From: Candidatus Atribacteria bacterium UBA6251
GTDB lineage: Bacteria > Atribacterota > Phoenicimicrobiia > Phoenicimicrobiales > Phoenicimicrobiaceae
DNA: 64,000 nt
Assembly: GCA_002441285.1 (NCBI GenBank)
Contig: DJVR01000028.1
Coordinates: 2,910-66,909, forward strand
Direction: 5' to 3'
A model generated the notes under the pieces. That model saw only the letters and a program-made list of their open reading frames with translations. It searched no databases and was not told where the DNA came from. The position numbers and the translations under genes are program-made. Shown in pieces: positions 3,738-26,665 of the stretch (position 1 is the first letter of the stretch; every line of letters starts with the position of its first letter).

Positions 3738-3742
3738 ATAAA

Positions 3743-5175: not shown

Positions 5176-5298
5176 TATAATATATGCTATAAAAACCTGA
5201 TCTAAATTGGAGAGGAAGGAAGGTGATGGTTAATTAAGAATTAATCTGGAATAATTTTACACATAAAGATTATACAAAAAAAGAAAGGAGAGAAAAAG

Positions 5299-7622: not shown

Positions 7623-8060
7623 TTGAAAGGAATTGGTTATTTCACTATTTCCCTGTTGCTATCTTCGGAATCAGAGGAAAAAGATTTAATTAAAAAACTA
7701 AAAGAGTTAGGCTATAAGGTAAGTCAGGGTAAGTCTGGAACTATGGATAGCAAAGAGTTAATTGCAGCTATCGAAACAACCGCTAAAAGAGAAGGAATTT
7801 TCCAGGCAGATTGTTATAGAGATGAACATGTAGTCTATCATACCGCTTTAAGTGCCTTGAGAGGATTTTGTAGAGGAGAAATTGGGATTGGAAACTTTTT
7901 GAGGACGATAGGGGTAAAATTTGTGGTATTAAGAGGTCCCATTGATATAACTCGAAGAAATTTAGGAGAATGGGTAGCGGTAGGTATTTATGGAATGGTA
8001 GGAGCACCAGTAAAAGGATTTGAACATGAAGCCATAGGTTTAGAGATTAATAGTATTTAA
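7623..8060 (+). CDS. hutP: HutP, histidine-responsive RNA-binding antiterminator
   Basis: 145 aa, collinear with B. subtilis HutP. Window: GTMDSKELIAAIETTAKREGI...YRDEHVVYHTALSALRGFCRGE...LRTIGVKFVVLRG...EWVAVGIYGMVGAPVKGFEHEAIGLEINSI. HutP: GSMDAHKVIAAIETASKKSGV...[22 protein letters not shown]...LRTVGLRFAVLRG...DWIAVSLYGTIGAPIKGLEHETFGVGINHI. TTG start with GGAGAGG RBS. Confidence 0.9.
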   Translation: MKGIGYFTISLLLSSESEEKDLIKKLKELGYKVSQGKSGTMDSKELIAAIETTAKREGIFQADCYRDEHVVYHTALSALRGFCRGEIGIGNFLRTIGVKFVVLRGPIDITRRNLGEWVAVGIYGMVGAPVKGFEHEAIGLEINSI

Positions 8061-8116: not shown

Positions 8117-8146
8117 TTGGACTTATTAGTATAATAGTAGTATAAT
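8117..8146 (+). promoter_or_regulatory. Candidate sigma-70 type promoter in the hutP-iorA spacer
   Basis: TTGGAC (8117-8122), an 18-nt spacer, then TATAAT (8141-8146). Sequence match only, in very AT-rich DNA. Confidence 0.3.
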
Positions 8147-8262
8147 TTATTTAAAGATGATAAAAACACTTAAAGTAATTATTCCATAGATTGAATATCT
8201 TTATTTCATTTCAATAGAAATTTTGTTTGAGTAATAAAATAATTAAATATTTTATAAACCCA

Positions 8263-8286
8263 AAGACAATAGATGATAGGGGGTAG
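8263..8286 (+). promoter_or_regulatory. HutP binding site: four NAG triplets with exact 4-nt spacers
   Basis: AAG(8263-65)-acaa-TAG(8270-72)-atga-TAG(8277-79)-gggg-TAG(8284-86). UAG-N4-UAG-N4-UAG is the established HutP recognition pattern. The last two triplets lie in the 5' arm of the terminator stem. Confidence 0.75.
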
Positions 8287-8311
8287 TTAATAATTACCTC
8301 CTATTTTTTTT
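8276..8311 (+). terminator. Intrinsic terminator (HutP-controlled attenuator) upstream of iorA
   Basis: Stem 8276-8285 (ATAGGGGGTA) pairs with 8295-8304 (TACCTCCTAT). It is 10 bp with one G-U pair and a 9-nt loop, followed by a run of 8 T (8304-8311). It lies 45 nt upstream of the iorA start. Confidence 0.8.
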
Positions 8312-8355
8312 ACTATGATTATTTTTTAAAGATTATTTAATAAGGAGGTGTAAAC

Positions 8356-10254
8356 TTGAAGAGGTTACTCACCGGAAATGAAGCAATTGCCGAGGGGGTT
8401 ATTGAATCGGGGGTGGAAGTAATTACTGGTTATCCTGGCACTCCTTCTTCAGAAGTTATTCTTAACTTAAAATCTATGCAAAATAAAGCAGATTTCAGGC
8501 CTCAGCATATTGAATGGAGCATAAATGAAAAAGTGGCTCTTGAGATAGCAGCGGGAGCTGCCTGGGCAGGTAAAAGGGCGTTGGTTACTATGAAGATGTC
8601 GGGATTAAATGTAGCTGCTGATTCTCTGGTTTCTATTGCATATAGTGGATGTAGGGGAGGATTAGTAATTTTTGTGGCCGATGATCCAGGAGCTCATGCT
8701 GGTATGGCAGAACAGGATTCCCGTCATTATGCCAGATTAATGATTATCCCGATGCTGGATTTAGCCTCCCAGCAAGAAGGTCTGGATTATATGAAGTTAG
8801 CCTTTGAATTATCAGAAAAGATTGGTGGACCTATCTTTTTAAGGTCAACCACAGATATTTCCCACGTAGCTTCCGATGTAGAAATAGGGAATAGACTTAA
8901 TTTAGAAAAAAGAGAAATATTTCTGGAAAAAGACATCACTAGGTATACGAAAGCAGCCTCTTCCTGGTGTATAGCTCAACATAAAGACGCAATTAATCGT
9001 TTAAAGCAAGCTTTAGATTACACAGATAATTATCTTTCCGAGCATGGCATAAGGGTAAATGAGATGTCCTTGGATGAGAAGATTAAAGAGGGGGTAATTT
9101 ATTCTGGAGCGGTAGAAGGTAATTTTAAAGAAGCCATCAAAAGATACAATTTAAAACTTTCCTGGTTAAAGATTGGTTTAATACATCCCTTGCCAGAAGA
9201 AAGAATTAAGAGATTTTTGGAAAAAGTTGAACGGGTACTTATCTTAGAAGAGCTGGATCCATTTATTGAAACAGAAGTAAGAAGAATTGCATCTCAAATG
9301 AATAAATCGGTAGATATCTGGGGGAAATTTAATAAAGATTTTTTACCCTGGGTAGGTGGATATTCCTTCCGGGAAATAAAAAAGGGACTGGAAACCTTTT
9401 TGGGAAAAGTGTTTGAATCTGAACAGGATTCCAGGATTAGATTAAAAGCAAAAGAAATAGAAGTAAAACGCACTACCTCTTTTTGTGTCGGCTGTCCTCA
9501 CCGGGGAGCCTATTTTGCCCTCAATAAAGCTATTAAAAAATTAAAATATAAAAAGGATGAAATAATTATTACTGGAGATATTGGATGTACTATTTTAGGA
9601 ATGAATAAACCTTTTGAATCTTGCTGGACAGAGATAGCTATGGGAGCAAGTATAGGTTTGGCTCAAGGGTTTAAGTGGGCGGGCATAGAAAAACCAGTAA
9701 TAGCTACCATTGGAGATTCTACTTTTTTCCATGCTGGTATCCCTCCTTTGATTAACGCAATTTATCAGAAAGTACCCTTAACTGTTATTATTTTAGATAA
9801 TGGTTGGACTGCTATGACTGGTTTTGAAGAAAATCCAGGCACCCTTGCTTTCGACAATAAAGAAGACACCAAAAGAGTAGATATTAGGGAAATTTGCCAG
9901 GGTTGTGGAGTAGAAGATCTAAAAGTAATTGATCCTTATAAACCAGAGGAAGCAATAAATACCATTATAAAGGCGATTAAATATCCAGGTGTTTCTGTGG
10001 TATTATCCCGACAGGAATGTGCCTTACAAGCAAAGAGAAGGAAAGTAAATTTTGCGAAATATAGAGTGGATATAAAAAAGTGTACCGGTTGCCGGGTGTG
10101 CCTAAATTCTGTAGGGTGTCCAGCGATGGTATTTCACCCGGCAGAGGAGAAAGGAAGACCATATATGGAAATTACCATGGATTGTTTTGGTTGTGGAATA
10201 TGTAAATTCGACTGTCCAACTGGGGCAATAGAGGAGATAAAAGATGGAAAATAA
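8356..10254 (+). CDS. iorA: Indolepyruvate:ferredoxin oxidoreductase, alpha subunit (TPP-binding, C-terminal 2x[4Fe-4S])
   Basis: 632 aa. N-terminus LLTGNEAIAEGVIESGVEVITGYPGTPSSEV; TPP region GDIGCT...GDSTFFHAG; C-terminal CTGCRVCLNSVGCP...CFGCGICKFDCP. RBS AAGGAGGTG before the TTG start. Confidence 0.9.
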   Translation: MKRLLTGNEAIAEGVIESGVEVITGYPGTPSSEVILNLKSMQNKADFRPQHIEWSINEKVALEIAAGAAWAGKRALVTMKMSGLNVAADSLVSIAYSGCRGGLVIFVADDPGAHAGMAEQDSRHYARLMIIPMLDLASQQEGLDYMKLAFELSEKIGGPIFLRSTTDISHVASDVEIGNRLNLEKREIFLEKDITRYTKAASSWCIAQHKDAINRLKQALDYTDNYLSEHGIRVNEMSLDEKIKEGVIYSGAVEGNFKEAIKRYNLKLSWLKIGLIHPLPEERIKRFLEKVERVLILEELDPFIETEVRRIASQMNKSVDIWGKFNKDFLPWVGGYSFREIKKGLETFLGKVFESEQDSRIRLKAKEIEVKRTTSFCVGCPHRGAYFALNKAIKKLKYKKDEIIITGDIGCTILGMNKPFESCWTEIAMGASIGLAQGFKWAGIEKPVIATIGDSTFFHAGIPPLINAIYQKVPLTVIILDNGWTAMTGFEENPGTLAFDNKEDTKRVDIREICQGCGVEDLKVIDPYKPEEAINTIIKAIKYPGVSVVLSRQECALQAKRRKVNFAKYRVDIKKCTGCRVCLNSVGCPAMVFHPAEEKGRPYMEITMDCFGCGICKFDCPTGAIEEIKDGK

Positions 10255-10831
10255 TTTTTATATCACTGGAGTAGGGGGACAAGGAGTAGTGCGTTTGGGC
10301 CAAATTCTGGCTCTTTATGGATTAGAAAAGGGTAAAAAGGTCAGATTTTATAAACAGGTAGGAATGGCTCAAAGGGGTGGTCCAGTTCATTGTGAGGTAA
10401 GGATAGGCGAGGTTTTTGGATCGAGAATTCCTCCTCTTTCGGCAGATATAGTTGTAGTTATGGAATTGGCTGAAGGCTTGAAAGCTTTAGAATTTGTAAA
10501 ACCAGGAGGTATGGTGATACTAAACAGAAAAAAGATATATCCACTTGATTTAATGGCTTATCCGGATCAATACCCTCCAGAAGAAGAGATTATCCAATTG
10601 TTTAAAGAAGTTGGAGCTAAGATCTTCTGGATAGAGGCAGATAGAATAACCCAAGAAATTAATCTTCCTTTAGCTGAGAATATTATTATATTGGGAGTCA
10701 TCGCCAATTTTTTATCTTTAGATAAGAGTATTTTATTAAATTTATTAGAAAAAAATGTACTTGGTTCATTTTTAACAAAAAACCTGGAAGCTTTTGAGAG
10801 AGGTTTTCAGTGGGCAGAGGAAATGAAATAA
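10244..10831 (+). CDS. iorB: Indolepyruvate:ferredoxin oxidoreductase, beta subunit
   Basis: 195 aa with ITGVGGQGVV..., typical of the IorB/gamma-type OFOR domain. Overlaps the iorA end by 11 nt. Confidence 0.85.
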   Translation: MENNFYITGVGGQGVVRLGQILALYGLEKGKKVRFYKQVGMAQRGGPVHCEVRIGEVFGSRIPPLSADIVVVMELAEGLKALEFVKPGGMVILNRKKIYPLDLMAYPDQYPPEEEIIQLFKEVGAKIFWIEADRITQEINLPLAENIIILGVIANFLSLDKSILLNLLEKNVLGSFLTKNLEAFERGFQWAEEMK

Positions 10832-10832
10832 T

Positions 10833-12179
10833 ATGAAAGATAGTATTCCTAATTTTTTTAATCCTAAAACAGTAGCTATTTTTGGTTCTATGAAAGAAGG
10901 CAAAACTGGATATGAAATTGTGAGGAATATGTTAGAAGGTGGCTTTAAGGGAGGGATATACCCAATAAGCCAGACTAATGGTAAAATTTTGGGATTAAAA
11001 ACATTTTCAGATTTTAAGAATTTATCTATTGATTTAGCCATTATAGCCATTCCTGGTTCTTTTATTCCTGTTCTTTTAGAAGATTTGGGAAAACAAAATG
11101 TTTCATCAGTGGTAATAATATCAGCAGGATTTTCTGAGGTAGGTAATTTAAAAGAAGAAGAAGAATTACTTACTATTGCCCGAAAATATCAAATCAGAAT
11201 CATTGGGCCAAATTGTGCTGGAATTATGAATACCAGCAATAATCTTTTTGCCAGTATAGAAGTGCGTGCTCTACCCGGTAATACCGCTTTTATTACTCAA
11301 AGTGGAGCCCTGGGGGGTGCAGTTTTAATGATGGCTGAGGAATTAGGTTTTGGTTTTTCTAAATTTGTAAGTTATGGAAATAGATGTGATGTAGATGAAG
11401 CAGATTTAATCGATTATTTACGAGATGATTCAGAAACCAGAGTAATCGCTATCTATATCGAAGCTTTAGCAGAGGGGAAAAAATTTTTATCAAAAATAAA
11501 GACAACGGTATCTAAGAAACCAATTATTGCCATTAAAGCAGGTAAATTTAAAGCTGGGAAAAGAGCTACCTCTTCCCACACCGGTTCTTTAGCGGGAGAA
11601 GATAGAATTTATGAAGCAGCTTTTAGACAATTTGGAATTTTAAGGGTTGAAGATATAGAAGAGATGTTTGATTTGTGTAGAGGTTTAGAATATTATCCCC
11701 GAATTAACGGTAAAAGAATTGCCATAATAACTAATGCGGGGGGTCCTGCAGTAATGACCACGGATAAATTAGAAGAATTAGGTTTAGAAGTACCGGAACC
11801 TTCTGGTTCTTTAATTAAAACTTTGAAAGGTTTACTCCCTCCTAATGTTTCTTTGAAGAATCCTTTTGATCTTTTGGCTTATGGTAGTGCAGATACTTTT
11901 ACTCAAGTAGGAGAGACTATTGCTCCAGAATATGATGCCCTTATAATTATTTTTGTACCTACCGCTTCGATGGATTCGGTGAAAATTGCCCAGGCAGTGG
12001 GAGAAATAAAGAAGAAGATTAATAAACCAATTTTTACCAGTTTTATGGCTGGAAGATTAGTAAAAAAAGGGATTGAAGAATTAAAAAAATATGGTATCCC
12101 TAACTACTCTACGGGAGAAAGGTGTGCTAGGGTCATTCAGAAGATAGTCTGGCATACTTTAAAAAATAATCCAAAATAG
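10833..12179 (+). CDS. acdA: ADP-forming acyl-CoA synthetase (acetate-CoA ligase, ADP-forming), alpha subunit
   Basis: 448 aa. FFNPKTVAIFGSMKEGKTGYEIVRNM (CoA-binding domain), IIGPNCAGIMN, and SHTGSLAG around the phosphohistidine loop. Confidence 0.85.
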   Translation: MKDSIPNFFNPKTVAIFGSMKEGKTGYEIVRNMLEGGFKGGIYPISQTNGKILGLKTFSDFKNLSIDLAIIAIPGSFIPVLLEDLGKQNVSSVVIISAGFSEVGNLKEEEELLTIARKYQIRIIGPNCAGIMNTSNNLFASIEVRALPGNTAFITQSGALGGAVLMMAEELGFGFSKFVSYGNRCDVDEADLIDYLRDDSETRVIAIYIEALAEGKKFLSKIKTTVSKKPIIAIKAGKFKAGKRATSSHTGSLAGEDRIYEAAFRQFGILRVEDIEEMFDLCRGLEYYPRINGKRIAIITNAGGPAVMTTDKLEELGLEVPEPSGSLIKTLKGLLPPNVSLKNPFDLLAYGSADTFTQVGETIAPEYDALIIIFVPTASMDSVKIAQAVGEIKKKINKPIFTSFMAGRLVKKGIEELKKYGIPNYSTGERCARVIQKIVWHTLKNNPK

Positions 12180-12360
12180 GTAAAATGGAATAAATAAAAA
12201 TTAATCTAAATGTAGAATATAATTTATGCTTTTTACCCAGAGGACTTATGTACTGGAGAATGGAAGAGTAGCTAGAATGGTAAAAATTTATAAAAGAGTG
12301 AACATATAAAGAAATATTACCTGGGGTTATAAACTAAATAAAAAAGAACGGAATTTTTAG

Positions 12361-13041
12361 ATGCATAGAATCTTACAAAAAGCAAAAGAAGAAAAAAGAT
12401 CTTTATTAGAAATAGAAGCTAAAGAATTACTAAGAGAATATGGAATTCCTGTACCAAATTATAAATTAGTAAGAAGTAAAGACCAGATTAGAGGGTTAAG
12501 TGAAGAAATACCCTTTCCAATAGTAATGAAAATTGTATCTCCCCAAATTATACACAAATCAGAGTCTGGAGGAGTAAAAATAAACATAAAGGACGAGCAG
12601 GAAGCTAGATTAGCTTATCAAGAAATAATAGAAAATGTCAAAAGATATAATCATCATGCCAGGGTTGCCGGGGTAATAGTATATTCTTTTATTCCAAAAC
12701 AAACTGAAGTTATTATTGGGATGATGAAAGATCCTCATTTTGGACCAGTTATTATGTTTGGATTAGGGGGAATATACGTAGAAGTATTGAAAGATATTTC
12801 TTTTCGTATTATCCCTATCAAAGAAAAAGATGCTCGGGAGATGATTACTGAAATTAAAGGTTTTGAAATTTTAAAAGGAATAAGAGGAGAACCCTCGCGA
12901 GATATCCAGATATTAGAAGATATATTAATAAAAGTTTCTCATTTGGTGGAAGAAAATCCGGAGATTAAAGAGTTAGATTTAAATCCTATTTTTGTTTTTG
13001 AAAAAGGTGCTCAGGTGATCGATGCTCGAATGATTTTATAA
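12361..13041 (+). CDS. acdB: ADP-forming acyl-CoA synthetase, beta subunit (ATP-grasp)
   Basis: 226 aa. LLEIEAKELLREYGIPVPNYKLV...VMKIVSPQIIHKSESGGVKINI...LDLNPIF is the canonical AcdB pattern. The start at 12361 directly follows an in-frame TAG, and the RBS is weak. Confidence 0.8.
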   Translation: MHRILQKAKEEKRSLLEIEAKELLREYGIPVPNYKLVRSKDQIRGLSEEIPFPIVMKIVSPQIIHKSESGGVKINIKDEQEARLAYQEIIENVKRYNHHARVAGVIVYSFIPKQTEVIIGMMKDPHFGPVIMFGLGGIYVEVLKDISFRIIPIKEKDAREMITEIKGFEILKGIRGEPSRDIQILEDILIKVSHLVEENPEIKELDLNPIFVFEKGAQVIDARMIL

Positions 13042-13089
13042 TTTTAAGTCATTTTAATAAATGATTGATGGAAGCTTGGTGGAAAGAAG

Positions 13090-15474
13090 GTGGTTAAATT
13101 GGAGAAAGAACAATATGATTTTATTGGCCAACCTCTAGAAATAAAAAATATCGGTAAGGTTACTGGTAAAGAATTATATTCTTCAGATATAAATATTCCC
13201 GGTCAGTTATATGCAGTCATCTTGAGAAGCCCACATGCTCATGCTGAGATTAAAAAAGTAGATTATAGCGAAGCAGTAAAGGTGGGAGCAGTATGTATTG
13301 GTCCCCAAGATGTGCCTGAGATAATTTATAATGAAAGAATAGTGAGTATTCCTGAGAAGACTTATCGAGACAGAACTGTTCTACCTAAGGAAAAAGTCCG
13401 CCATAAAGGGGAAGCATTGGTAGCTTGTGCTGCTGAAACTGAAGAGAAAGCCTGGGCTGCCTTGCAAAAGATAAAAATAGAATGGGGAAAACAGTGGAAA
13501 CCGCTTCTTACTTTGGAAAAAGCTTTATCAGACGATGCTCCTCCTATCTATGATTGGGTCTATTTAGGTGAAGAAAAATTAAAGGTGAAAAATAATATTG
13601 CCTGCGAGAGAAATATTGAGGTGGGAGATGTGGAGGAAGGTTTTCGAGAAGCAGATATTGTGATAGAAAAAACTTTTCATACTCAAAGAGTCTATCATAT
13701 GCAATTTGAGACCAAATCAGCAGTATGTGTTCCGGAAGCGGATGGAGGAATAACTGTCTGGACTACTTCTCAGGGGATTCATAATGTCCGCATTTTGTTA
13801 GGAAATATTTTTAATCTTCCTTTAAGTAAAATAAATATAAAAAGAATAACTCTGGGAGGCTCCTTTGGCTCAAGCATTCAGATGAATTCTATTACTCCTA
13901 TCTGTGTAGCTTTAGCTTTAAAGGCTAAGAAGCCGGTAAAGTTAGTATCTTCCAGGGAAGATGATTTCTATGACCATGCCAAATACCCCTTAAAAACTAT
14001 TTTAAAAGTGGGGGTTAAAAAGGATGGTACTTTTACCGCTGCTCATTGCCGGGTCTGGGTGGAGATTGGTGGTCATAACATTCAGGCTTATCCTTATTTA
14101 GGATGTGTGGCAGGTTGGTTTGCTTCTCTTTATAAGTGGAAGAATATAAAATATGAAGGTACTGCAGTCTATACCAATAAAGTACCAACCTGTGCTATGC
14201 AAGGGTATGGTAACCCTCAGATTAATTTTGCCGTAGAAAGTATGATTGATATATTAGCAGAAGAATTGAAAATGGACCCCATTAATCTGCGCTTGAAGAA
14301 TTATGTAGGGAAAGGAGACGAATTCTGGGGGCAAGGACCTACCGTTAGATCTATTATCAGAAGTTGTGGAGTTGAAGAGATGCTACTGGAAGGAGCAAAA
14401 CTTGCTCAGTGGGAAAAGAGAGTCCCTCATTACCAGAAAAAAGAAGTTATCAGAAAAGGTATGGGAGTAGCTCGAGGGTTCCATACTTCAGGGACAGGAG
14501 GTCCTAATCCTGGTGAAGTAATTGATTACTCCGGAGCAACTATTAAAATAAATGAAGATGGTTCAGTGGATGTATTAACTGCCCTAATGGATCTTGGAGG
14601 AGGCACCTGGGATGCCTTAGCTAAAATAGTGGCAGAAGTTTTAAAGGTACCTTTTGAAAAGATTGGTATTTATAATGGGATAGATACTCGTTCAACCGTT
14701 TTTGATGTTAATACCCATGCTACACGAGGGGTATATTGTGGAGGAGGAGCAGTAAAGTTTGTTGCTGAGAAGGTCAAGGAGATACTTCTGAATTATGCTG
14801 CCACTTTATTTAAAGATTTACCTGAGAATTTAGTATTATCCTGTAATAAAGAATTGGGGCAAGCTATAATATATCCTCGAGAGATACCAGAAAATTATAA
14901 GACTATAGGGGAGATAGCAGAATATGCTCATACTACCAGCTGGGGTACCTTGGCTTATACTTCTACTCTTCGGCAGAAAAACTGTCCTCCCTGTTTTATT
15001 ACACACTTTGTTGAAGTGGAAGTGAATACCCGGACTGGAGAAGTTAAGATTCCACGAGTGGTGATTATGGGTGATTCGGGAACGATTATTAATCCAAATT
15101 TATGGGAAGGGCAAATCATAGGAGCTTTTAGCAGAGGTCTGGGTTTTGGTCTTTTAGAAGAGACTGATTATCATCCTGAAGATGGGAGTTTAAGATGTAA
15201 AGGATTAGTAACTGATTATAAGATTCCTACTACTTTAGAAATGCCAAAAATAGAAGATATTATAGTACGTTCTGCTCATACTTATGAACCTACTGGTCCT
15301 TTTGGAGCCAAGGGGATAGGAGAAGCAGCTTTAAGTTCGGTAGGACCTGCAATAGCTAATGCTATCTATAATGCTATTGGAATCAGGTTTTATGAATTGC
15401 CTATTACTCCAGAAAAAATCTTAAAATCCCTCCAGGAGAAAGAGGAAAATCTCAGAAAAAGGAGAGGTGAATAG
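13090..15474 (+). CDS. Xanthine dehydrogenase-family molybdopterin-binding large subunit (set 1)
   Basis: 794 aa. N-terminal Ald_Xan_dh-type region (GKELYSSDINIPGQLYAVILRSPHAHAEI), GGSFGS motif, C-terminal GPFGAKGIGEAAL. Start is GTG 13090, or possibly TTG 13099. Confidence 0.85.
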   Translation: MVKLEKEQYDFIGQPLEIKNIGKVTGKELYSSDINIPGQLYAVILRSPHAHAEIKKVDYSEAVKVGAVCIGPQDVPEIIYNERIVSIPEKTYRDRTVLPKEKVRHKGEALVACAAETEEKAWAALQKIKIEWGKQWKPLLTLEKALSDDAPPIYDWVYLGEEKLKVKNNIACERNIEVGDVEEGFREADIVIEKTFHTQRVYHMQFETKSAVCVPEADGGITVWTTSQGIHNVRILLGNIFNLPLSKINIKRITLGGSFGSSIQMNSITPICVALALKAKKPVKLVSSREDDFYDHAKYPLKTILKVGVKKDGTFTAAHCRVWVEIGGHNIQAYPYLGCVAGWFASLYKWKNIKYEGTAVYTNKVPTCAMQGYGNPQINFAVESMIDILAEELKMDPINLRLKNYVGKGDEFWGQGPTVRSIIRSCGVEEMLLEGAKLAQWEKRVPHYQKKEVIRKGMGVARGFHTSGTGGPNPGEVIDYSGATIKINEDGSVDVLTALMDLGGGTWDALAKIVAEVLKVPFEKIGIYNGIDTRSTVFDVNTHATRGVYCGGGAVKFVAEKVKEILLNYAATLFKDLPENLVLSCNKELGQAIIYPREIPENYKTIGEIAEYAHTTSWGTLAYTSTLRQKNCPPCFITHFVEVEVNTRTGEVKIPRVVIMGDSGTIINPNLWEGQIIGAFSRGLGFGLLEETDYHPEDGSLRCKGLVTDYKIPTTLEMPKIEDIIVRSAHTYEPTGPFGAKGIGEAALSSVGPAIANAIYNAIGIRFYELPITPEKILKSLQEKEENLRKRRGE

Positions 15475-15476
15475 CA

Positions 15477-16367
15477 TTGCATAATACCAGATTTTTAACT
15501 CAAGAATTTGAATATTTTGTTCCCCATACTTTATCTGAGGCTTTAGATTTACTCTTTACTTATCAAGATAAAAGGACTAAGATATTAGCAGGAGGAACAG
15601 ATCTACTAGTGAAAATGAAGACCCTGGGGATAGGAGTAGATTATTTAATTAATATTAATGAAATTTCTGAGATAAAGAATGTAGAGTTGGATAAAGGCTT
15701 AAAGATTGGAGCAGCAGTCAAACTTTCTCAATTAGAGAAGATGAAAGCAGTAAAGGAAGAATATCCTGCTTTATATGAGGGAATTACCTCAATGGCAGCA
15801 ATAGCTATCCGAAATATGGCTACTCTGGTTGGCAATATTTGCAATGCTTCTCCAGCTGGGGACACTATTCCTCCCTTAGTGGTATATGGGGCAAAGTTAA
15901 GGATAGTCAGTAAAAAAGGAGAACGAGTTATTCCGCTTGAAGATTTTATTAGCGGGGTTGGAGAGACTATACTTAAAAGAGATGAATTAGTGAGTCAGGT
16001 AATAATTCCTGAACCTTATAAAGATTTGGGAAGTGCATTTTGTAAAAAAGGCAGAGTAAAAGCTGATATTGCCAAAATAAATCTGGCTGTAGGTATAGAA
16101 AGAGATGGTGATATTTGTCGAGACTGCCGGATAGTGCTGGGCTCGGTTTTTAGTAAAACCCTACGAGCATATAAATCAGAAGAAATTCTTAGAGGAAAAG
16201 TGATAAAGGATGATTTAATTATTTCTGCAGCCAAAAGAGCTGCCGAAGAGATTAAGCCTATCGATGATGTACGTTCTACAGCTGAATATAGAAATGAATT
16301 AGCCCGGGTAATGGTGGAAGATACTTTACACATAGCCTGGGAAAGAGCGGGTGGTAAGAGGTGGTAA
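15477..16367 (+). CDS. Xanthine dehydrogenase-family FAD-binding medium subunit (set 1, CoxM/XdhB-like)
   Basis: 296 aa. FEYFVPHTLSEALDLL...ILAGGTDLLVKMK...ATLVGNICNASPAGD, and C-terminal DDVRSTAEYR. Confidence 0.85.
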   Translation: MHNTRFLTQEFEYFVPHTLSEALDLLFTYQDKRTKILAGGTDLLVKMKTLGIGVDYLININEISEIKNVELDKGLKIGAAVKLSQLEKMKAVKEEYPALYEGITSMAAIAIRNMATLVGNICNASPAGDTIPPLVVYGAKLRIVSKKGERVIPLEDFISGVGETILKRDELVSQVIIPEPYKDLGSAFCKKGRVKADIAKINLAVGIERDGDICRDCRIVLGSVFSKTLRAYKSEEILRGKVIKDDLIISAAKRAAEEIKPIDDVRSTAEYRNELARVMVEDTLHIAWERAGGKRW

Positions 16368-16368
16368 G

Positions 16369-16854
16369 ATGAAGAAGATGGAAATAGAATTTATTCTTAA
16401 TGGTAAAAAAAGGAAAATAGAAGTAAAACCAAATGACCTTTTAATTAATATTATTAGAGAAGATTTATACCTTACCGGTACAAAATATGGTTGTGGACTT
16501 GGAGAATGCGGAGTTTGTACAGTTTTATTAAATGGTGAACCAGTTCTCTCCTGTCTAACCCTAGCTATAACTGTTGATGGTAAAGAAATTACTACCATCG
16601 AAGGATTAGCTCAGGGCGATGAATTGCATCCTTTACAGAAAGCATTTTTGAAAAATGGGGCTGTACAATGTGGTTTTTGTACACCGGGAATGATATTGAC
16701 GGCCACTGCATTATTAAGAGAAAATCCTGATGCTACCGAAGATGAGATCAGAAATTATATGAGAGGTAATCTTTGTCGGTGTACTGGATATGTGCAAATT
16801 ATAAAAGCAATCAAAGAATGTACCTCTATAAAAAATAAGGGATTAACAAACTGA
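16369..16854 (+). CDS. Xanthine dehydrogenase-family [2Fe-2S] small subunit (set 1, CoxS-like)
   Basis: GCGLGECGVCTV...CL and QCGFCTPGMI...NLCRCTGY are the two 2Fe-2S cluster motifs. I prefer ATG 16369 (just after the previous stop) over the listed 16351. Confidence 0.85.
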   Translation: MKKMEIEFILNGKKRKIEVKPNDLLINIIREDLYLTGTKYGCGLGECGVCTVLLNGEPVLSCLTLAITVDGKEITTIEGLAQGDELHPLQKAFLKNGAVQCGFCTPGMILTATALLRENPDATEDEIRNYMRGNLCRCTGYVQIIKAIKECTSIKNKGLTN

Positions 16855-16887
16855 AATAATAACTATATGGTAAGGAGGAGAAATTTA

Positions 16888-17739
16888 GTGAAACAGATTA
16901 AATATATCTCTCCCCGAACAAAGGAAGAAGCTTTAGAGGTTTTACAACAAGAGAAAGATCGTGCTTGTATAGTGGCTGGTTGTTCCAATGTTCTTCCTAA
17001 TCTTAAGGATAAAAAGATTGCTCCTCAAATTTTAGTAGATATTACTACTCTAGAATCATTAAAAGGGATTTTTAAAAAAGAAGGTAAAATTTTATTAGGT
17101 CCTTTAACAACTATCAATGAATTAATTTCTTCGAAGATTATCTTAGAGGAATATCCAGTATTAACTCAAGCTGCCCGGGAGTTTGCTGATCCGATAGTAA
17201 GAAATACTGCTACTGTGGGAGGAAATTTAGTTACCGCATCTCCTGCAGCGGATCTTGCTGTCCCGCTGCTTAGTTTAGATGCAATAGTTAAGATAGAGAG
17301 TCTAGGGGACAAGAGAGAGGTTAACTTAATCAATTTTTTTACTGCTCCAGGGGAGACTATCTTAAATAGCCATGAATTAGTAGTGGGAATTGAATTTAAA
17401 CAGAGTGATATCAATAAAAATGGTTGTTTTATGAAGATTGGTCAAAGAAAAGCTATGGCTATTTCTATTGCTACTTTAGCAGTAAATTTAGACTGGAAAG
17501 AAAATACCATCAATCAAATTAGGATTGCTGCGGGTTCAGTAGCACCTACTCCCTTAAGACTTACCGGAGTAGAAGAATTTTTAAAAAATAAAAAACTAAA
17601 TCAGGAATTGATAGAAGAGGCAGTTATTAAAGTAAGTAAAGAAGTTAACCCCATTAGTGATATTCGGGCTTCAGAGGGATATCGGCGGTATATTTCTGGA
17701 ATTTTATTCAAACGAGCTATTGAAAGATTGGCCAATTAG
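16888..17739 (+). CDS. Xanthine dehydrogenase-family FAD-binding medium subunit (set 2)
   Basis: IKYISPRTKEEALEVL...VAGCSNVLPNLK...ATVGGNLVTASPAAD...SDIRASEGYR. AAGGAGG at 16872-16878 sits 9 nt before GTG 16888, so I prefer that over the listed ATG 16867. Confidence 0.8.
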   Translation: MKQIKYISPRTKEEALEVLQQEKDRACIVAGCSNVLPNLKDKKIAPQILVDITTLESLKGIFKKEGKILLGPLTTINELISSKIILEEYPVLTQAAREFADPIVRNTATVGGNLVTASPAADLAVPLLSLDAIVKIESLGDKREVNLINFFTAPGETILNSHELVVGIEFKQSDINKNGCFMKIGQRKAMAISIATLAVNLDWKENTINQIRIAAGSVAPTPLRLTGVEEFLKNKKLNQELIEEAVIKVSKEVNPISDIRASEGYRRYISGILFKRAIERLAN

Positions 17740-18004
17740 ATTAGCTATTAGTGGATAGGGAATAGTCGAAAGGAAAAAAGAAAATATAAAAAGATATAAT
17801 TAGATAATTAATATGGAGAGAAAATGACTATTTAAATTGGTCAATTAGTTAAAAAAGTTTAAGACAATAATTTTGTTCTTAATTATCTTTTATTTTTAGA
17901 TGAGATCACCACGTTTTGTTTTATTAGAGTACCGAAAACTTTTAACTAAACAGCAACTAACTAGATAACCAGCTAACCAAACAACTAAATCAAGGGAGAT
18001 TCAT

Positions 18005-18481
18005 ATGGAAGAATATAAAATTGAGATGAAAATAAATGGAGAGAGATTAGTAGCTACTACCCAAGCTGATGAGTCTTTACTAAAATTTTTGCGTCGTAAT
18101 GGTTTTTTTGAAGTAAAATGTGGCTGTGAAAAGGGTGAATGTGGTACTTGTACAGTAATTTTACAAGGAAAGGCAGTCAAATCCTGTATTACTTTAGCTC
18201 TACAAGCTAATAATAAAGAGGTATGGACAATTAGAGGGATGGAAAAATTCGAACTGGGAAGAAAATTACAGGAAAGTTTTGTACAATACGGGGCGATTCA
18301 GTGTGGTTTTTGTACTCCGGGAATGATTTTAGTGGCCAAAGCTTATTTAGATAAAAATCCAATTCCTGACCGCAAAGAAATCAAAAGAGAAATAGCTGGT
18401 AATTTGTGTAGATGTACCGGATACAAGAAGATCATAGATGCTATTTATGCAGTTGCAGAGGAAAATAAAAAAATGAATTAA
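18005..18481 (+). CDS. Xanthine dehydrogenase-family [2Fe-2S] small subunit (set 2)
   Basis: 158 aa with CGCEKGECGTCTV...C and QCGFCTPGMI...NLCRCTGY. RBS AAGGGAG. Confidence 0.85.
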   Translation: MEEYKIEMKINGERLVATTQADESLLKFLRRNGFFEVKCGCEKGECGTCTVILQGKAVKSCITLALQANNKEVWTIRGMEKFELGRKLQESFVQYGAIQCGFCTPGMILVAKAYLDKNPIPDRKEIKREIAGNLCRCTGYKKIIDAIYAVAEENKKMN

Positions 18482-18620
18482 ATTTAAAGGCAATAAGATT
18501 TACTGCTTCGGTTTTTAAAATGTACCTCAAAAAAAGAGAACAGGTCTCTTTTTATAGATAAAAACAGGTCATTTTTTTATAATAATCTGAACAATAAAGA
18601 TTGATAGGAAGGTGAAGCTT

Positions 18621-20915
18621 ATGTCCCAGTTAAAAATAATTGGTAAACCGATATCTCGGGATGATGCCTGGGCTAAGGCAAAGGGAGAACTTAAATATGC
18701 CGATGATTTTTCTCTTCCAGGAATGTTATATGGCAAAGTTCTTCATAGTAAATATCCAGCTGCAAAAATTATTTCTATTAATACCGAGAAAGCAAAGCAA
18801 TTTTCTGGGGTACGGGCAGTTTTAACCGCTGGCGATGTTCCCCACAATGAAACTGTAACTAGATTTGGACAGAGTTCAGAAGTGGGGAAAGGTTTTGAGG
18901 GTCTATACCGAGTATTAGCAGATAAAAAAGTAAGATTTATGGGAGAAGCAATAGCCTTGTTGGCGGCTGATACCGAAGAGATTGCTGAGGAAGCAATAAA
19001 TCTAATTGAAGTAGAGTATGAACCTCTTCCAGGAGTCTTTGATCCAGTAGAAGCAATGCAGCCCGGTGCTTATTTGGTAGGCGAAGTAGATAGTAATATT
19101 ATTGCTCAATTTGGTTGTGCTCAGGGAGATATTGAGAGAGGATTTAAAGAAGCAGATATAATTATTGAGGATACCTATAAGGTTCCATTTGTTGATCATG
19201 CCTATTTAGAAACAGAAAGCGGTATCGCTTGGATAGATGAAAATAGTGTAATTAATATTCGGGTAGGCTCACAGGTAATTGAACACTTCCGGGATGTTGC
19301 AGATGTTCTAGGTTTACCTCATAATCGGGTTCGTTATCGAGGGACGATGATGGGTGGAGGATTTGGAGGTAAGGAAGATATTACGGTAGAGACTTATTTA
19401 GCTTTACTTACCTGGAAGACTAAAAAACCAGTAAGATTGGTTTATAGTCGAGAAGAATCCATATTGTGTCATAGTAAGAGACATCCTTTTATTATGCATT
19501 ATAAAGTTGGGGCAAAAAAAGATGGGAAACTAGTGGCTTTAGAAGCAGAATTAATTTCTGATGCTGGAGCTTATCCATATTTAAGCCCTTGGGTTAATTT
19601 ATACGCTACAGTAAATGCTGCTGGTCCTTACTGTATTCCTCATATTAAGGTTAATACTTATTGTGTTTTAACTAATAATACTTTTACCAGTGCCAATAGA
19701 GGGTTTGGAGCTCCTCAACCGAATATGGCTTATGAAAGTATAATGGATGAATTAGCTCATCAATTAAGCATAAATCCTTTAGAAATAAGACGAATTAATT
19801 GTCTTACTACCGGGAAAGCCTTATCTACAACTGGTCAGACTTTTAAAACCTATGTTGCCCTTCCTGAGGTAGCAGAAAAGGCTTGGGAAGCACTAGGGAA
19901 TCCCACCAGGATTAAGGACAAGTATAAAAAAGTTGGACAGGGGTTAGCTATCGGTTTGATGAGTTATGGCCGAATGACTTTTCTGCATGATTCTTCTCGT
20001 TGTTACGTTCGATTAGAATCAGATGGTAGTATATTAATCAGATCAGGGATTCCTGATTTAGGCGGTGGTCAGGTCTCCATACTCTGTCAGATTGTAGCAG
20101 AGGAATTAGGAGTACCTATGTCAAAGATAAATATATATTATAGTGATACAGCGCTCACTCCTTTAGCGGGTACTACTACAGCTACACGACAGACTTATAT
20201 GTCCGGTAATGCTGCCCTGAAAGCTGCTCGAGAAATAAAAAAAAGGCTCATCTATAAAGCTGCTCAAATGATGAATGTTCATACTGATAATCTGGATATA
20301 GGGGAAGAAAAGATAATAGTGAAATATAAGCCTTCCCAATATTTACCTTTAATAGAGGCGATTAAGGCCTGTAATGCTGATGGAATTGAATTATTCTGTG
20401 AGGCACAATTCAATGGTCCATTTACCATGACTCCTGATTTATCCAATATTAGGGGTATGATTTTTCCCGATTTTACCTTCGGGGCACAGGCAGTAGAAAT
20501 TGCGGTGGATATAGAAACAGGAGAAGTTGAAGTATTAAAATTAGTTACCTGTTATGATGTAGGTAAGGCAATAAATCCTTTGAGTGTAGAAGGACAAATG
20601 GAAGGCGGTTCGATCTATGGCTTGGGATATGCCCTGATGGAAGAGGTAATCATTAAAGATGGGGTTACCCTTACTCCTTCTTTCTCAGAATATATTATTC
20701 CTACTTCTGCTGATGTACCTGAAGCAAAAGCCATTTTGGTAGAGTCGGGGGGCGGCTTGGGCCCATATGGTGCAAAAGGGATTGGGGAACCAGCCTGCAG
20801 CATTATTGCACCTGCTATTTTAAATGCTATTTATAATGCGGTGGGGGTTAGAATTAAGAGTTTGCCTGCCACTCCGGAAAAAATAATTCGAACCTTAAAA
20901 GGCCAGTTTAATTAA
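18621..20915 (+). CDS. Xanthine dehydrogenase-family molybdopterin-binding large subunit (set 2)
   Basis: About 764 aa. GKPISRDDAWAKAKGELKYADDFSLPGMLYGKVLHSKYPAAKI, GGGFGGKED, C-terminal GPYGAKGIGEPA. ATG 18621 is better placed after AGGAAGG than the listed GTG 18612. Confidence 0.85.
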   Translation: MSQLKIIGKPISRDDAWAKAKGELKYADDFSLPGMLYGKVLHSKYPAAKIISINTEKAKQFSGVRAVLTAGDVPHNETVTRFGQSSEVGKGFEGLYRVLADKKVRFMGEAIALLAADTEEIAEEAINLIEVEYEPLPGVFDPVEAMQPGAYLVGEVDSNIIAQFGCAQGDIERGFKEADIIIEDTYKVPFVDHAYLETESGIAWIDENSVINIRVGSQVIEHFRDVADVLGLPHNRVRYRGTMMGGGFGGKEDITVETYLALLTWKTKKPVRLVYSREESILCHSKRHPFIMHYKVGAKKDGKLVALEAELISDAGAYPYLSPWVNLYATVNAAGPYCIPHIKVNTYCVLTNNTFTSANRGFGAPQPNMAYESIMDELAHQLSINPLEIRRINCLTTGKALSTTGQTFKTYVALPEVAEKAWEALGNPTRIKDKYKKVGQGLAIGLMSYGRMTFLHDSSRCYVRLESDGSILIRSGIPDLGGGQVSILCQIVAEELGVPMSKINIYYSDTALTPLAGTTTATRQTYMSGNAALKAAREIKKRLIYKAAQMMNVHTDNLDIGEEKIIVKYKPSQYLPLIEAIKACNADGIELFCEAQFNGPFTMTPDLSNIRGMIFPDFTFGAQAVEIAVDIETGEVEVLKLVTCYDVGKAINPLSVEGQMEGGSIYGLGYALMEEVIIKDGVTLTPSFSEYIIPTSADVPEAKAILVESGGGLGPYGAKGIGEPACSIIAPAILNAIYNAVGVRIKSLPATPEKIIRTLKGQFN

Positions 20916-20945
20916 AATTGCTTTTTCTTGCTGAGGGGAAAGAAG

Positions 20946-21752
20946 ATGAAAATTTCCAAAGCTTTAGAATTAAAAGAAAGGGCTTTTATCTCCTTAATAG
21001 GTGCAGGAGGGAAAAGTGCTATTTTCCGATCATTAGCAGAAGAATTAATTCAAGAAAATAGTCATATCATTCTTACTACTACTACCAAAATGTATACCTG
21101 GCAATTAGATCCTTTTATAAAAAAGGGAAAATTAATTGAGGGTAATAACAAAGAACCTATGCGACTATCTCTAGAAAAATATTTTTCTTACAGAAGAAAA
21201 GAAGGAAATTTGGCCATAGTAGTAGGAAATAGAGAAAATGATCTGGGTGAAGAGAAGTTTTTTGGATTAGTACCTGACTGGTTAGATTGTTGGTGGGAAA
21301 GAAAGATAGCGGAATATTTTTTAGTAGAAGCAGATGGGGCAAAGGGTAGGTCGATTAAAGCTCCTTCTTCTAATGAACCAGTTATTCCGTCGTCTACTAC
21401 TCATTTAATCGGAGTTATAGGGGTTGATGTGGTAGGTCTTTCTTTGGAGGAGAAAAATGTTTTTCGTTCCCAGCTTTTTTCCCAGTTAATCGGGATTAAA
21501 TTAGGAGAAAAATTGAATCTGGAACATTTATCTCGCTTTATTTGTCATCCCGAGGGCTTATTTAAAATAGTCCCTGAAAATTGTTTAGTCCACCTTTTTA
21601 TCAACAAAGTTGAAGAGGAAAAAGATCTAAAAATTGCCGAAGAATTAGCCTTTGAAGTTTTAAAACTTTGTCCTCAAAAGATTACCAGTATAATTATTGG
21701 AGCTGCCCATCAATCGGAAGTAGTTAAAACATTAATTAAAAGGATAGATTAG
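20946..21752 (+). CDS. yqeC: Selenium-dependent hydroxylase accessory protein YqeC family
   Basis: ISLIGAGGKSAIFRSLAEEL...IILTTTTKMY matches the YqeC P-loop-like signature (E. coli YqeC: VIALVGAGGKTT...VLVTTTTHM). I prefer ATG 20946 after GAGGGGAAAG over the listed TTG 20928. Confidence 0.75.
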   Translation: MKISKALELKERAFISLIGAGGKSAIFRSLAEELIQENSHIILTTTTKMYTWQLDPFIKKGKLIEGNNKEPMRLSLEKYFSYRRKEGNLAIVVGNRENDLGEEKFFGLVPDWLDCWWERKIAEYFLVEADGAKGRSIKAPSSNEPVIPSSTTHLIGVIGVDVVGLSLEEKNVFRSQLFSQLIGIKLGEKLNLEHLSRFICHPEGLFKIVPENCLVHLFINKVEEEKDLKIAEELAFEVLKLCPQKITSIIIGAAHQSEVVKTLIKRID

Positions 21753-21754
21753 GA

Positions 21755-22369
21755 ATGATCTATGGAATAATTTTAGCAGCAGGAGAGGCTAAGAGAATGG
21801 GAGAAGTTAAATTAACTCTTCCTCTGGGAGATAAAAAAATAATTGAATGGGTTTTGCTTGCAGTAAAGTTTGCTCCCTTAGATAAATATTATCTGGTAGT
21901 TCGTCCTACGGATGAGGAAATTATCGAGATAGGTAAGAAATGGGGAGCAAAAATAATAGTTAATCCAGAATATAAAACTGGAATGAGTAGCTCAATTAGA
22001 AAGGCAATAACTAAGATTTCTCCGGAAAATTTAGAAGGTTTTTTTATTATTTTAGCTGATCAGCCTTTTATTAATTCATCATTATTTTATAAGATGCTCA
22101 AGTTATTTACTCCCGGTCAAAGAGAAATAATCGTCCCTTTTTATCAGGAACAACCGAGAAATCCAGTATTTTTTGATGGATATTGGAGAGATGAATTATT
22201 AAAGATTTCAGGTGATGTGGGGGGTAAGACTCTAATTAAGGCTAATCCTGAAAAGATAAAAAGGTTTAAAGTAAATCAAGAATATGTATTCTTTGATATT
22301 GATGTGCAAAAAGATTATGAAGAAGCAAAAGCTATTTTTACCTTTCTTCATAAAAAGGGAAAGATATAA
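21755..22369 (+). CDS. MobA/MocA-like molybdenum cofactor nucleotidyltransferase
   Basis: 204 aa. The N-terminal IILAAGEAKRMG... nucleotidyl-transferase motif and LADQPF are typical of MocA/MobA-like NTP transferases. Confidence 0.8.
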   Translation: MIYGIILAAGEAKRMGEVKLTLPLGDKKIIEWVLLAVKFAPLDKYYLVVRPTDEEIIEIGKKWGAKIIVNPEYKTGMSSSIRKAITKISPENLEGFFIILADQPFINSSLFYKMLKLFTPGQREIIVPFYQEQPRNPVFFDGYWRDELLKISGDVGGKTLIKANPEKIKRFKVNQEYVFFDIDVQKDYEEAKAIFTFLHKKGKI

Positions 22370-23172: not shown

Positions 23173-23369
23173 TTATAGAGTTTTATTTTGAAAAATATAA
23201 AAAAATAAAAAAAGTGTATACTAAATTTGAAGGAAAGAATAAAAAAGAATAAATAAAATTTTAATCTGGGAATTTATTAAATAATCTGCAGGGAATTATT
23301 TTTTTATTACGGGTTATATTAATATTAGAATAACCCTTGAAGATTGTTATTTTTGAGGAGGGTTATGAA

Positions 23370-24149: not shown

Positions 24150-24169
24150 ATACCAAGGAGTGTAAAAGT

Positions 24170-25261: not shown

Positions 25262-25266
25262 TTTTT

Positions 25267-26663: not shown

Positions 26664-26665
26664 AG

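Follow-up and report, generated by a model that had tools for sequence, protein, structure and literature searches.

The stretch examined here, called the window throughout, comprises 64,000 nucleotides of Candidatus Atribacteria bacterium UBA6251 (GenBank assembly GCA_002441285.1, contig DJVR01000028.1, positions 2,910 to 66,909 of the forward strand), an Atribacterota metagenome-assembled genome (MAG) of 1.7 Mb in 67 contigs that is 79% complete. It carries a row of genes in which an indolepyruvate ferredoxin oxidoreductase (IOR, iorAB) and an ADP-forming acyl-CoA synthetase (ACD, acdAB) are followed by two molybdenum hydroxylases of the xanthine dehydrogenase (XDH) family, all downstream of a gene for the antiterminator HutP. 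The operon is most likely under the control of HutP, and through it of histidine, and its genes most likely cover the first two-thirds of a histidine degradation that depends on neither O2 nor the Hut enzymes. Comparative genomics makes it possible, if still short of probable, that the whole route runs from histidine through imidazole-4-acetate, hydantoin-5-acetate and N-carbamoyl-aspartate to aspartate, with a gain of two ATP. Equally tentative is the wider proposal that this operon family carries out a complete O2-independent mineralisation of the imidazole ring, using Mo hydroxylases of new specificity and a HutP that in Atribacterota has been re-targeted from hutHUIG.

Organization of the operon

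The first-pass annotation had read the row as iorA-iorB-acdA-acdB, followed by the large, FAD and small subunits (L-M-S) of one hydroxylase and the M-S-L genes of another. All ten genes lie on the plus strand at the positions it gave, as checked by a listing of open reading frames (ORFs) and by Pfam and NCBIfam profile scans of the window proteins: iorA (8356-10254), iorB (10244-10831), acdA (10833-12179), acdB (12361-13041), L1 (13090-15474), M1 (15477-16367), S1 (16351-16854), M2 (16888-17739), S2 (18005-18481) and L2 (18612-20915). The GTG start of M2 at 16888 was also well chosen, being preceded 7 nt upstream by the ribosome-binding site AAGGAGGAG and better supported than the ATG at 16867. 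The composition of the window (GC content 33-38%, uniform skew) and its nearest homologues agree with an origin in an Atribacterota MAG.

All genes from iorA to yqeB, in the maturation set beyond L2, are co-directional and separated by −17 to 265 nt. The same annotation had considered a single operon unproven and had named two gaps, 12180-12360 (181 nt, between acdA and acdB) and 17740-18004 (between M2 and S2), as possible seats of internal promoters. Both gaps are present. A promoter-like site does occur in the row, in the S2-L2 gap (18555-18583), while a plus-strand scan of 7400-27000 found no terminator between iorA and the hydroxylase genes. One transcript starting at the HutP leader is plausible, and internal promoters are possible. 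The M2-S2 gap was considered as a terminator or structured RNA and rejected, as it folds no better than its shuffles (z = +1.1).

The gaps have features of their own. Degenerate (T/A)AACCAA / TTACTTATCA heptamer-like repeats fill 17940-17995, immediately 5' of the S2 ribosome-binding site, and similar repeats occur in the M2-S2 gaps of loci L004, L006, L007, L010, L019 and L080. At the site of the acdA-acdB gap, relatives carry an insertion of a protease of the SDH family and a Liv-type ATP-binding cassette (ABC) transporter. This insert, which splits acdA from acdB, measures 5-6 kb and consists of the Clp-fold protease and five Liv-type ABC genes (L087 3380-9184, L006, L007, L012, L015 and L026).

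HutP and its leader

The hutP gene (7623..8060, plus strand) encodes an RNA-binding antiterminator of the type activated by L-histidine and Mg2+. Its product scores 158.2 bits with NF002838, above the equivalog cut-off of 155, and aligns over its full length with the B. subtilis HutP structures (E = 1e-38), keeping the equivalents of His73, His77, His138, Arg88 and Arg98, which we take to belong to the histidine and Mg2+ pocket, and with Ser at the position of Glu81. The 295-nt leader between hutP and iorA contains a predicted HutP target, AAG-N4-TAG-N4-TAG-N4-TAG (8263..8313, plus strand), that overlaps the 5' arm of an intrinsic terminator. This terminator is a 14-pair hairpin with its stem at 8275-8305, followed by eight T, and the last NAG triplets lie within its 5' arm. 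The leader folds with −17 kcal/mol (z = −2.8), and its hairpin is the only strong terminator-like site on the plus strand of 7400-27000; an Rfam scan of the same interval returned no family at E <= 0.1.

The leader reproduces the arrangement through which HutP acts by antitermination on the hut operon of B. subtilis (PMC2425495, PMC12591593). The two systems share a HutP orthologue, NAG-N4 repeats over a terminator 3' of hutP and an amino-acid transporter in the locus. They differ in what is regulated: the predicted targets in the window are iorAB-acdAB and the Mo hydroxylases, in place of hutHUIG, and a search of the source genome found neither hutH nor hutU, the genes of histidase and urocanase. 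Likewise, hutU is missing from all seven HutP-positive genomes among 61 sampled Atribacterota.

Relatives retain this architecture. HutP with the NAG/terminator leader stands upstream of the cluster in the window, in L004 and in genomes G025 and G055, and the array with its terminator is conserved in four lineages, the stem showing compensating changes in L004, L099 and L101. The HutP leader of G055 is followed first by a gene of the hisD family (TIGR00069, 470 bits). An ABC importer for polar amino acids, made up of permease, ATPase, permease and a Lys/Arg/Orn/His-family binding protein (3048..6069, plus strand; Pfam BPD_transp_1, ABC_tran and SBP_bac_3), lies upstream of hutP in the window, and such an importer is directly 5' of hutP in every HutP-positive relative, as judged by synteny in the seven genomes. 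The binding protein of the window scores 168 bits with TIGR01096, under the cut-off. HutP itself occurs in 7 of 19 Atribacterota genomes with an L1 orthologue and in none of 42 without (p = 1e-4 across the 61 genomes, 0.025 within the two carrier families; these and the p values below ignore phylogeny).

A second NAG-N4 array, TAG ctat TAG tgga TAG ggaa TAG tcga AAG, lies at 17742-17772 on the plus strand. Its five triplets have exact 4-nt spacers, and it begins 3 nt past the M2 stop, inside the unstructured 265-nt M2-S2 gap. A weaker form with alternating TAG and TGG is found in L004 and none in the other relatives. This array may be a second HutP-binding site within the operon.

The IOR and ADP-forming synthetase genes

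IorA contains the POR_N (PF01855) and TPP_enzyme_C (PF02775) domains and C-terminal ferredoxin domains for two [4Fe-4S] clusters (Fer4_7/9), and IorB consists of PF01558. IorA reaches 626.9 bits with TIGR03336, slightly below the cut-off of 650.9, and IorB 146 bits with TIGR03334, where 205.8 is required. The cluster IorA differs from the IorA that is widespread in Atribacterota, of which it is a separate paralogue with 35-41% identity. AcdA and AcdB, the two parts of a split synthetase, together have the CoA-binding, CoA-ligase flavodoxin and ATP-grasp_5 domains, as well as the motifs SSHTGSLAG (AcdA) and IIHKSESGGV (AcdB), the two phosphohistidine motifs of the ADP-forming synthetases; the TIGR02717 score is 456 bits against a cut-off of 567. 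The proposed substrate of IorAB is imidazolepyruvate, and the proposed activity of AcdAB is the conversion of imidazoleacetyl-CoA to imidazole-4-acetate with formation of ATP.

A HisC-family aminotransferase gene stands immediately before iorA in five relatives (L001, L014, L020, L101 and L117), with scores of 315-346 bits for TIGR01141 (cut-off 277). In L001, a DUF6282 gene precedes that of the aminotransferase; a hidden amidohydrolase was considered for it and discarded, as its product has no match in PDB or NCBIfam. HutP, the HisC-like and hisD-like genes, an importer of the His/Lys/Arg type, the lack of hutHU and the presence of IOR with the synthetase together lead to the prediction that histidine is converted to imidazole-4-acetate.

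In locus L116 (8664-13022), from a Thermoplasmata archaeon MAG, acdA, iorA and iorB are followed in this order by a MocA-like Mo-cofactor cytidylyltransferase gene, and the IorA is 52% identical to that of the window. This gene order hints that the IOR clade may be tied to molybdoenzymes of the molybdopterin cytosine dinucleotide (MCD) type outside bacteria.

A proposed route from histidine to aspartate

Histidine would enter through the adjacent polar amino-acid ABC system and activate HutP, which would allow read-through of the leader terminator. A HisC-type aminotransferase, encoded in the cluster of relatives and elsewhere in this genome, would convert histidine to imidazolepyruvate. The dedicated IorAB paralogue would then decarboxylate this compound oxidatively to imidazoleacetyl-CoA with reduction of ferredoxin, and AcdAB would release imidazole-4-acetate and conserve ATP. 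The two hydroxylases, predicted to be selenium-dependent, would next place water-derived oxygen on ring positions C2 and C5 to give hydantoin-5-acetate. L1 would probably act first, on the unsubstituted ring, and L2, with its Glu/Arg pair, probably on the oxo intermediate. A cyclic amidohydrolase resembling ErtD and allantoinase, encoded elsewhere in the genome, would open the ring to N-carbamoyl-L-aspartate, from which a reversed PyrB and carbamate kinase would produce aspartate and, via carbamoyl phosphate, the second ATP. Aspartase and phosphoenolpyruvate carboxykinase (PEPCK) would pass the carbon on to central metabolism.

Imidazole-4-acetate (C5H6N2O2) plus two oxygen atoms is hydantoin-5-acetate (C5H6N2O4), hydrolysis of which yields N-carbamoyl-aspartate. 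When xanthine is oxidised to urate at purine C8, the carbon that becomes hydroxylated is likewise C2 of an imidazole. The later steps come from the company that the hydroxylases keep in other phyla: the amidohydrolase, PyrB, carbamate kinase, aspartase and PEPCK lead to the prediction that a cyclic ureide is opened to N-carbamoyl-aspartate. The upstream and downstream lines are independent, and we infer that they converge on imidazole-4-acetate. The first-pass annotation knew of no characterised pathway with this arrangement, and literature searches on XDH and IOR in Atribacteria, on hydantoin-5-acetate or carboxymethylhydantoinase and on anaerobic imidazole-acetate metabolism with molybdenum likewise gave no description of one.

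The twin hydroxylases and their maturation genes

The two hydroxylases had been called diverged paralogues and not products of a recent tandem duplication. Their subunits bear this out, with identities of 31% between L1 and L2, 31% between M1 and M2 and 38-45% between S1 and S2. A tree of 131 large subunits separates L1 from L2 in two deep clades, which rules out recent tandem duplication. The internal branching of one clade mirrors that of the other across Syntrophaceae, Desulfobacterales/Acidobacteriota, several Bacillota groups, Caldisericota and Atribacterota. On this phylogeny, L1 and L2 are thus an old pair that has been passed on jointly in many phyla.

Neither large subunit reaches the NCBIfam equivalog cut-off for XDH, PucD, HcrA or aldehyde oxidoreductase. 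The best solved-structure match of both is the alpha subunit of 4-hydroxybenzoyl-CoA reductase (4-HBCR), and L2 also matches nicotinate dehydrogenase. This resemblance, the near-equivalog score of IorA and the operon linkage would suit hydroxylases that act on some other IOR/ACD product or on a CoA thioester, for example in the step from indole-3-acetate to 2-oxindole-3-acetate that has been proposed for the anaerobic iaa pathway, or in a 4-HBCR-like reaction on an aryl-acetyl-CoA. The first-pass annotation had favoured this generic reading in proposing (hetero)aryl-acetyl-CoA or aryl-acetate as substrate. The linkage on which it drew is sound, while the thioester idea comes down to the 4-HBCR structure match. 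M1 (296 aa) and M2 (283-290 aa), each with only 3-4 Cys, do not have the insertion that binds a [4Fe-4S] cluster in the beta subunit of 4-HBCR, and an enzyme of the 4-HBCR type was rejected for this reason. The beta profile TIGR03195 matches them in two stretches at 102-121 bits (cut-off 404.55), and the alpha profile TIGR03194 gives 411 and 507 bits against 994.55. The benzoyl-CoA pathway context of 4-HBCR (1RM6) is also missing at the window locus. HutP and the HisC-like and hisD-like genes, together with the lack of hutHU, point to imidazole-4-acetate over a generic aryl-acetate, be it indole- or phenyl-derived, and PyrB, carbamate kinase, aspartase and a cyclic amidohydrolase would make no sense for carbocyclic or indole products. 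A different IOR/ACD product, or its CoA thioester, is very unlikely as the substrate.

A maturation set follows L2 on the plus strand (20928..26663, NCBIfam), comprising yqeC, mocA, yqeB, xdhC, yedE, a tusA/yedF-like gene and a gene for an SclA-like cysteine/selenocysteine lyase. YqeB (368 bits, cut-off 220), YqeC (160.8, cut-off 73) and YedE (491, cut-off 200) are all above threshold, and selD, with an in-frame TGA, is found on another contig (SelD 342 bits, cut-off 125). YqeB and YqeC beside XDH-family genes, with SelD in the genome, are what marks the selenium-dependent molybdenum hydroxylase trait (Haft & Self 2008, PMC2276186), and this genome carries these markers. On contig C30, about 8 kb from the selD with its TGA (selenocysteine) codon, lies a fourth XDH-family set (~50500-54150 and 62526-63443) with a large subunit split like that of nicotinate dehydrogenase.

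The window enzymes can be compared with the known Se-Mo hydroxylases, namely the purine hydroxylase and XDH of C. purinolyticum, the nicotinate dehydrogenase of E. barkeri (3HRD) and the 2,8-dioxopurine dehydrogenase of C. sporogenes and E. coli (PMC2276186; bioRxiv 2025.04.24.650524; PMC12507026). Both groups are three-subunit Mo/FAD/2x[2Fe-2S] enzymes of anaerobes, with YqeB, YqeC, MocA and XdhC nearby and SelD in the genome. In contrast to nicotinate dehydrogenase, L is unsplit in the window; in contrast to XdhD, S and L are unfused; L1 lacks the purine Glu/Arg pair; and the family keeps company with IOR/ACD or with PyrB, carbamate kinase and aspartase, instead of SsnA, YgfK and YgeX.

Conservation of the linkage in Atribacterota

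The loci of relatives were collected through L1 homologues and then scanned with the window proteins. The row iorAB-acdAB-L1M1S1-second set-yqeC-mocA-yqeB-xdhC recurs throughout two Atribacterota families, so that the linkage of iorAB/acdAB to the hydroxylases noted earlier is real and conserved within the phylum, below one HutP-type antiterminator. Upstream sequence was long enough for a judgement in 20 Atribacterota loci, and AcdB lies directly 5' of L1 in 18 of them. It does not in L008, where AOR and other genes intervene, or in L009 (RBG_19FT_COMBO_35_14), where a glycyl-radical enzyme of the PFL2-3 subfamily, similar to CutC, and its activase (6111-9490) precede L1-M1-S1 in the place of iorAB-acdAB. 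The acdB-L1 junction persists while the second set is ordered L-M-S or M-S-L, while ABC genes are inserted and while hutP or the aminotransferase gene is gained or lost, and the arrangement is therefore beyond chance.

Phylogenetic profiles were drawn from 61 sampled Atribacterota genomes, the 19 with L1 orthologues and the 42 without that served for HutP above. The cluster-type IorA occurs in 17 of the 19 and in 1 of the 42 (p = 5.5e-12, and 2e-5 within the two carrier families), and the second IorA paralogue, 37-41% identical to it, is widespread in the phylum. A similar distribution is seen for the ErtD/allantoinase-like amidohydrolase (18/19 against 3/42; p = 1.8e-11, and 2e-4 within the carrier families), the Atribacterota form of which has ErtD as its top NCBIfam match at 350 bits (cut-off 650).

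These profiles bear on a reading in which the twin module serves another N-heterocycle or pyrimidine metabolism and its adjacency to IOR/ACD is inherited gene order without a metabolic link. The module stands without IOR/ACD in all 58 loci outside Atribacterota, Aerophobetes carry orthologous IorAB-AcdAB and L1 on separate contigs, the glycyl-radical enzyme takes the place of ACD in L009, and the PyrB of the cluster is the sole PyrB of three genomes. Against these observations stand an acdB-L1 junction that has outlived several independent rearrangements, the absence of a terminator between the two modules and a profile of the IorA paralogue that matches L1 even within the two carrier families. 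This reading is judged improbable.

Partner genes in other phyla

Partners of the twin module were identified by de novo clustering of all locus ORFs and NCBIfam naming, and were counted in the 28 loci outside Atribacterota that span 18 kb or more. L1 has as its partner L2 in 22 of these loci, and it is accompanied by a cyclic amidohydrolase resembling allantoinase and dihydroorotase (DHOase) in 16, by a Liv-type binding protein in 14, by carbamate kinase in 11 and by a PyrB-type aspartate carbamoyltransferase (ATCase) in 10, with IOR/ACD in none. Aspartate ammonia-lyase, PEPCK, an N-carbamoyl-amino-acid amidohydrolase and regulators of the IclR, PuuR-like and PucR types also occur. The carbamoyltransferase is a true PyrB (342 bits, cut-off 237). 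The tie of the hydroxylases to IOR/ACD that was claimed at first therefore stands in Atribacterota, and gives way in other phyla to a pairing with amidohydrolase, PyrB, carbamate kinase and aspartase. The clearest case is Formimonas, in which the genes run IclR, aspartase, amidohydrolase, PEPCK, carbamate kinase, L1M1S1, M2S2L2, ATCase and ABC transporter.

Atribacterota genomes bring the two contexts together. In G015 (Ca. Phoenicimicrobium), the contig and strand of the cluster continue with the maturation genes, ModE, MoCF, DUF364 and an NMT1-type ABC system, and then with IclR, carbamate kinase, PyrB, amidohydrolase and PEPCK. Aspartase, AOR, the protein x223 and amidohydrolase are adjacent in three other genera. 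Orotate, uracil/barbiturate and allantoin were considered as substrates of the module and rejected by chemical reasoning, as they would need no hydroxylation or would give no N-carbamoyl-aspartate.

Active sites and the purine alternative

Active-site motifs were located through a segment of bovine XDH and then checked across all orthologues; Glu802 and Arg880 are the substrate-orienting residues of the bovine enzyme and Glu1261 its catalytic residue. The Glu1261 equivalent is invariant in both clades. At the Glu802 position, all 78 sequences of the L1 clade carry Ile, and at that of Arg880, 64 of them have Gln and 14 Arg. The L2 clade keeps Glu and Arg at the two positions in 51 of 51 sequences. 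The first-pass annotation had named clustering with XDHs and conserved purine-binding residues as the observation that would speak against its reading. Such residues are present in L2 and absent from L1, and neither protein attains an XDH cut-off.

The Glu/Arg/Glu triad that L2 shows without exception is one of several points that weigh against the proposed histidine route and in favour of a purine hydroxylase and XDH pair. These enzymes would convert purines to xanthine or urate, amidohydrolase, carbamoyltransferase and carbamate kinase would cleave a purine-derived ureide, and the place behind iorAB-acdAB would reflect co-regulation of two separate nitrogen-rich catabolic modules. XdhA and PucD are the top NCBIfam names for L1 and L2, the clusters of L004 and L017 include an NCS2 nucleobase permease, and in the Moorella group the module has PucR regulators on its flanks and YgeX-like and XdhD-like genes nearby. 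SsnA, a marker of reductive urate degradation, is enriched among the L1-positive genomes (11/19 against 4/42; p = 1.3e-4, and 0.04 within families). The genes of the clostridial xanthine amidohydrolase route are still unidentified, so that a DHOase-like enzyme beside XDH-like genes is a candidate (PMC3519856), and the selenium-cofactor trait is classically tied to purines (PMC2276186; bioRxiv 2025.04.24.650524).

Other evidence argues against purines. Every XDH equivalog cut-off is missed, by 240-470 bits (best scores 472 against 780 bits for L1 and 543 against 784 for L2), and L1 is without Glu and Arg. The usual loci lack SsnA, YgfK, YgeX and YgeY and have PyrB, aspartase and PEPCK instead; within the window, none of the reductive urate cluster genes was found (XdhD/XdhAC-type, SsnA, YgfK/UacX, HyuA, YgeW, YgeY and YgeX). 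Eight of the 19 L1-positive Atribacterota genomes, some of them 96-99% complete, have no SsnA, which led to the rejection of L1 and L2 as obligate feeders of an SsnA urate pathway. The source genome has a separate SsnA cluster with an XDH-family enzyme of its own, and on a purine reading both the control by HutP and the co-occurrence of the IorA paralogue with L1 would be coincidence. A purine substrate is rather unlikely, and is the main rival to the histidine route.

The remaining points against the histidine route are of several kinds. The equivalent of Glu81 in HutP, presumably a histidine-contacting residue, is Ser in the window protein. Formimonas and two MAGs have no PyrB other than the ATCase of the module, which must therefore serve pyrimidine synthesis there too; the amidohydrolase may double as PyrC, in which case the neighbours could be ordinary pyrimidine-biosynthesis genes beside which the hydroxylases inserted. 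The genes for the aminotransferase, amidohydrolase, PyrB and carbamate kinase lie outside the window in this MAG. Finally, the co-occurrence statistics carry the neglect of phylogeny mentioned with them.

Neighbouring genes and related loci of the source genome

Upstream of the operon, the window also contains an M55 peptidase gene and a gene for a homologue of LarA-family (nickel-pincer) 2-hydroxyacid racemases (6232..7494, plus strand; Pfam Lar_N and LarA_C). The best NCBIfam match of the latter is the malate racemase LarAH6 (415 bits, cut-off 500). The gene is not found at the corresponding position in relatives, and its part in the pathway is uncertain.

Downstream, a GTP-dependent PEPCK (38961..40793, plus strand) is the orthologue of the G015 enzyme, with 80% identity. 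Between the NMT1-type ABC ATPase gene and pck, a type III restriction-modification island (32201-38936) fills the interval that holds IclR, carbamate kinase, PyrB and amidohydrolase in G015 (G015:C5, L110 8876-13290), and its insertion coincides with a relocation of these genes to contigs C56 and C25 of the source genome. Contig C56 (L106 1904-17224) encodes PyrB, a second GTP-type PEPCK (PEPCK2), PyrK, PyrD, a Liv ABC system, a tungsten-type AOR, x223 (223 aa) and the ErtD-like amidohydrolase, and carbamate kinase is located at the end of contig C25. The C56 row could also support catabolism of orotate or dihydroorotate.

The SsnA cluster lies on the minus strand of contig C21 (L105 96-14935). 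It encodes a PuuR-like regulator, an allantoinase-like amidohydrolase, a protein resembling ornithine carbamoyltransferase (OTC) and YgeW, a ThrC-like pyridoxal phosphate (PLP) enzyme, an M20 hydrolase similar to YgeY, a PALP enzyme and an ATCase-like protein. Its other products are the third XDH-family enzyme of the genome (L-M-S), a protein resembling 8-oxoguanine deaminase, and SsnA (560 bits). The cluster looks like a variant form of reductive urate degradation.

Relation to known pathways

Biochemical precedent for the sequence from histidine to imidazole-4-acetate with ATP formation exists in T. kodakarensis (PMC9986279). Histidine fermentation in Thermococcus follows the same logic of three enzymes, with a HisC/class I aminotransferase, a presumed IOR-type oxidoreductase and a split ADP-forming synthetase, and with a gain of ATP. 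It differs in that imidazole-acetate is the end product there, while the system of the window is bacterial, HutP-controlled by prediction and in an operon with two Mo hydroxylases.

The aerobic route of Pseudomonas proceeds from imidazoleacetate by a monooxygenase to imidazolone-acetate, formimino-aspartate and aspartate. It shares the substrate imidazole-4-acetate and the end product aspartate with the proposed route, and differs in its use of O2 and a flavin enzyme, its single hydroxylation, its formimino intermediate, the lack of ATP from carbamoyl phosphate and its unrelated enzymes. Xanthine and aldehyde oxidases oxidise imidazolone-propionate to hydantoin-propionate. A hydantoin-5-propionate also figures in the ergothioneine route (ErtD and the carbamoylase ErtE; NCBIfam NF058538-40), in which, as proposed here, ring opening of a hydantoin derived from an imidazole gives an N-carbamoyl amino acid. 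The side chain proposed here is one carbon shorter, and the carbamoyl group would be removed by phosphorolysis with PyrB and carbamate kinase instead of by hydrolysis.

Implications

The pathway of histidine catabolism that is generally taught is that of the Hut enzymes, by way of urocanate. Imidazole-4-acetate arises from histidine and histamine and is found in sediments and guts, and we know of no anaerobic fates for it. The twin module is also present in strains that have been cultured, namely Neomoorella stamsii DSM 26217, N. humiferrea, Desulfosporosinus sp. HMP52, Ca. Formimonas warabiya DCMF and Anaeroselena agilis, so the hypothesis is directly testable. If it is true, two widespread "xanthine dehydrogenase family" annotations would receive a specific function, and the substrate range of selenium-dependent Mo hydroxylases would reach past purines and nicotinate. 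HutP would be a portable histidine sensor. Because the intermediate would be N-carbamoyl-aspartate, carbon and nitrogen of the imidazole ring could enter pyrimidine synthesis directly. The abundant Atribacterota of the subsurface would gain two ATP from histidine by substrate-level phosphorylation.

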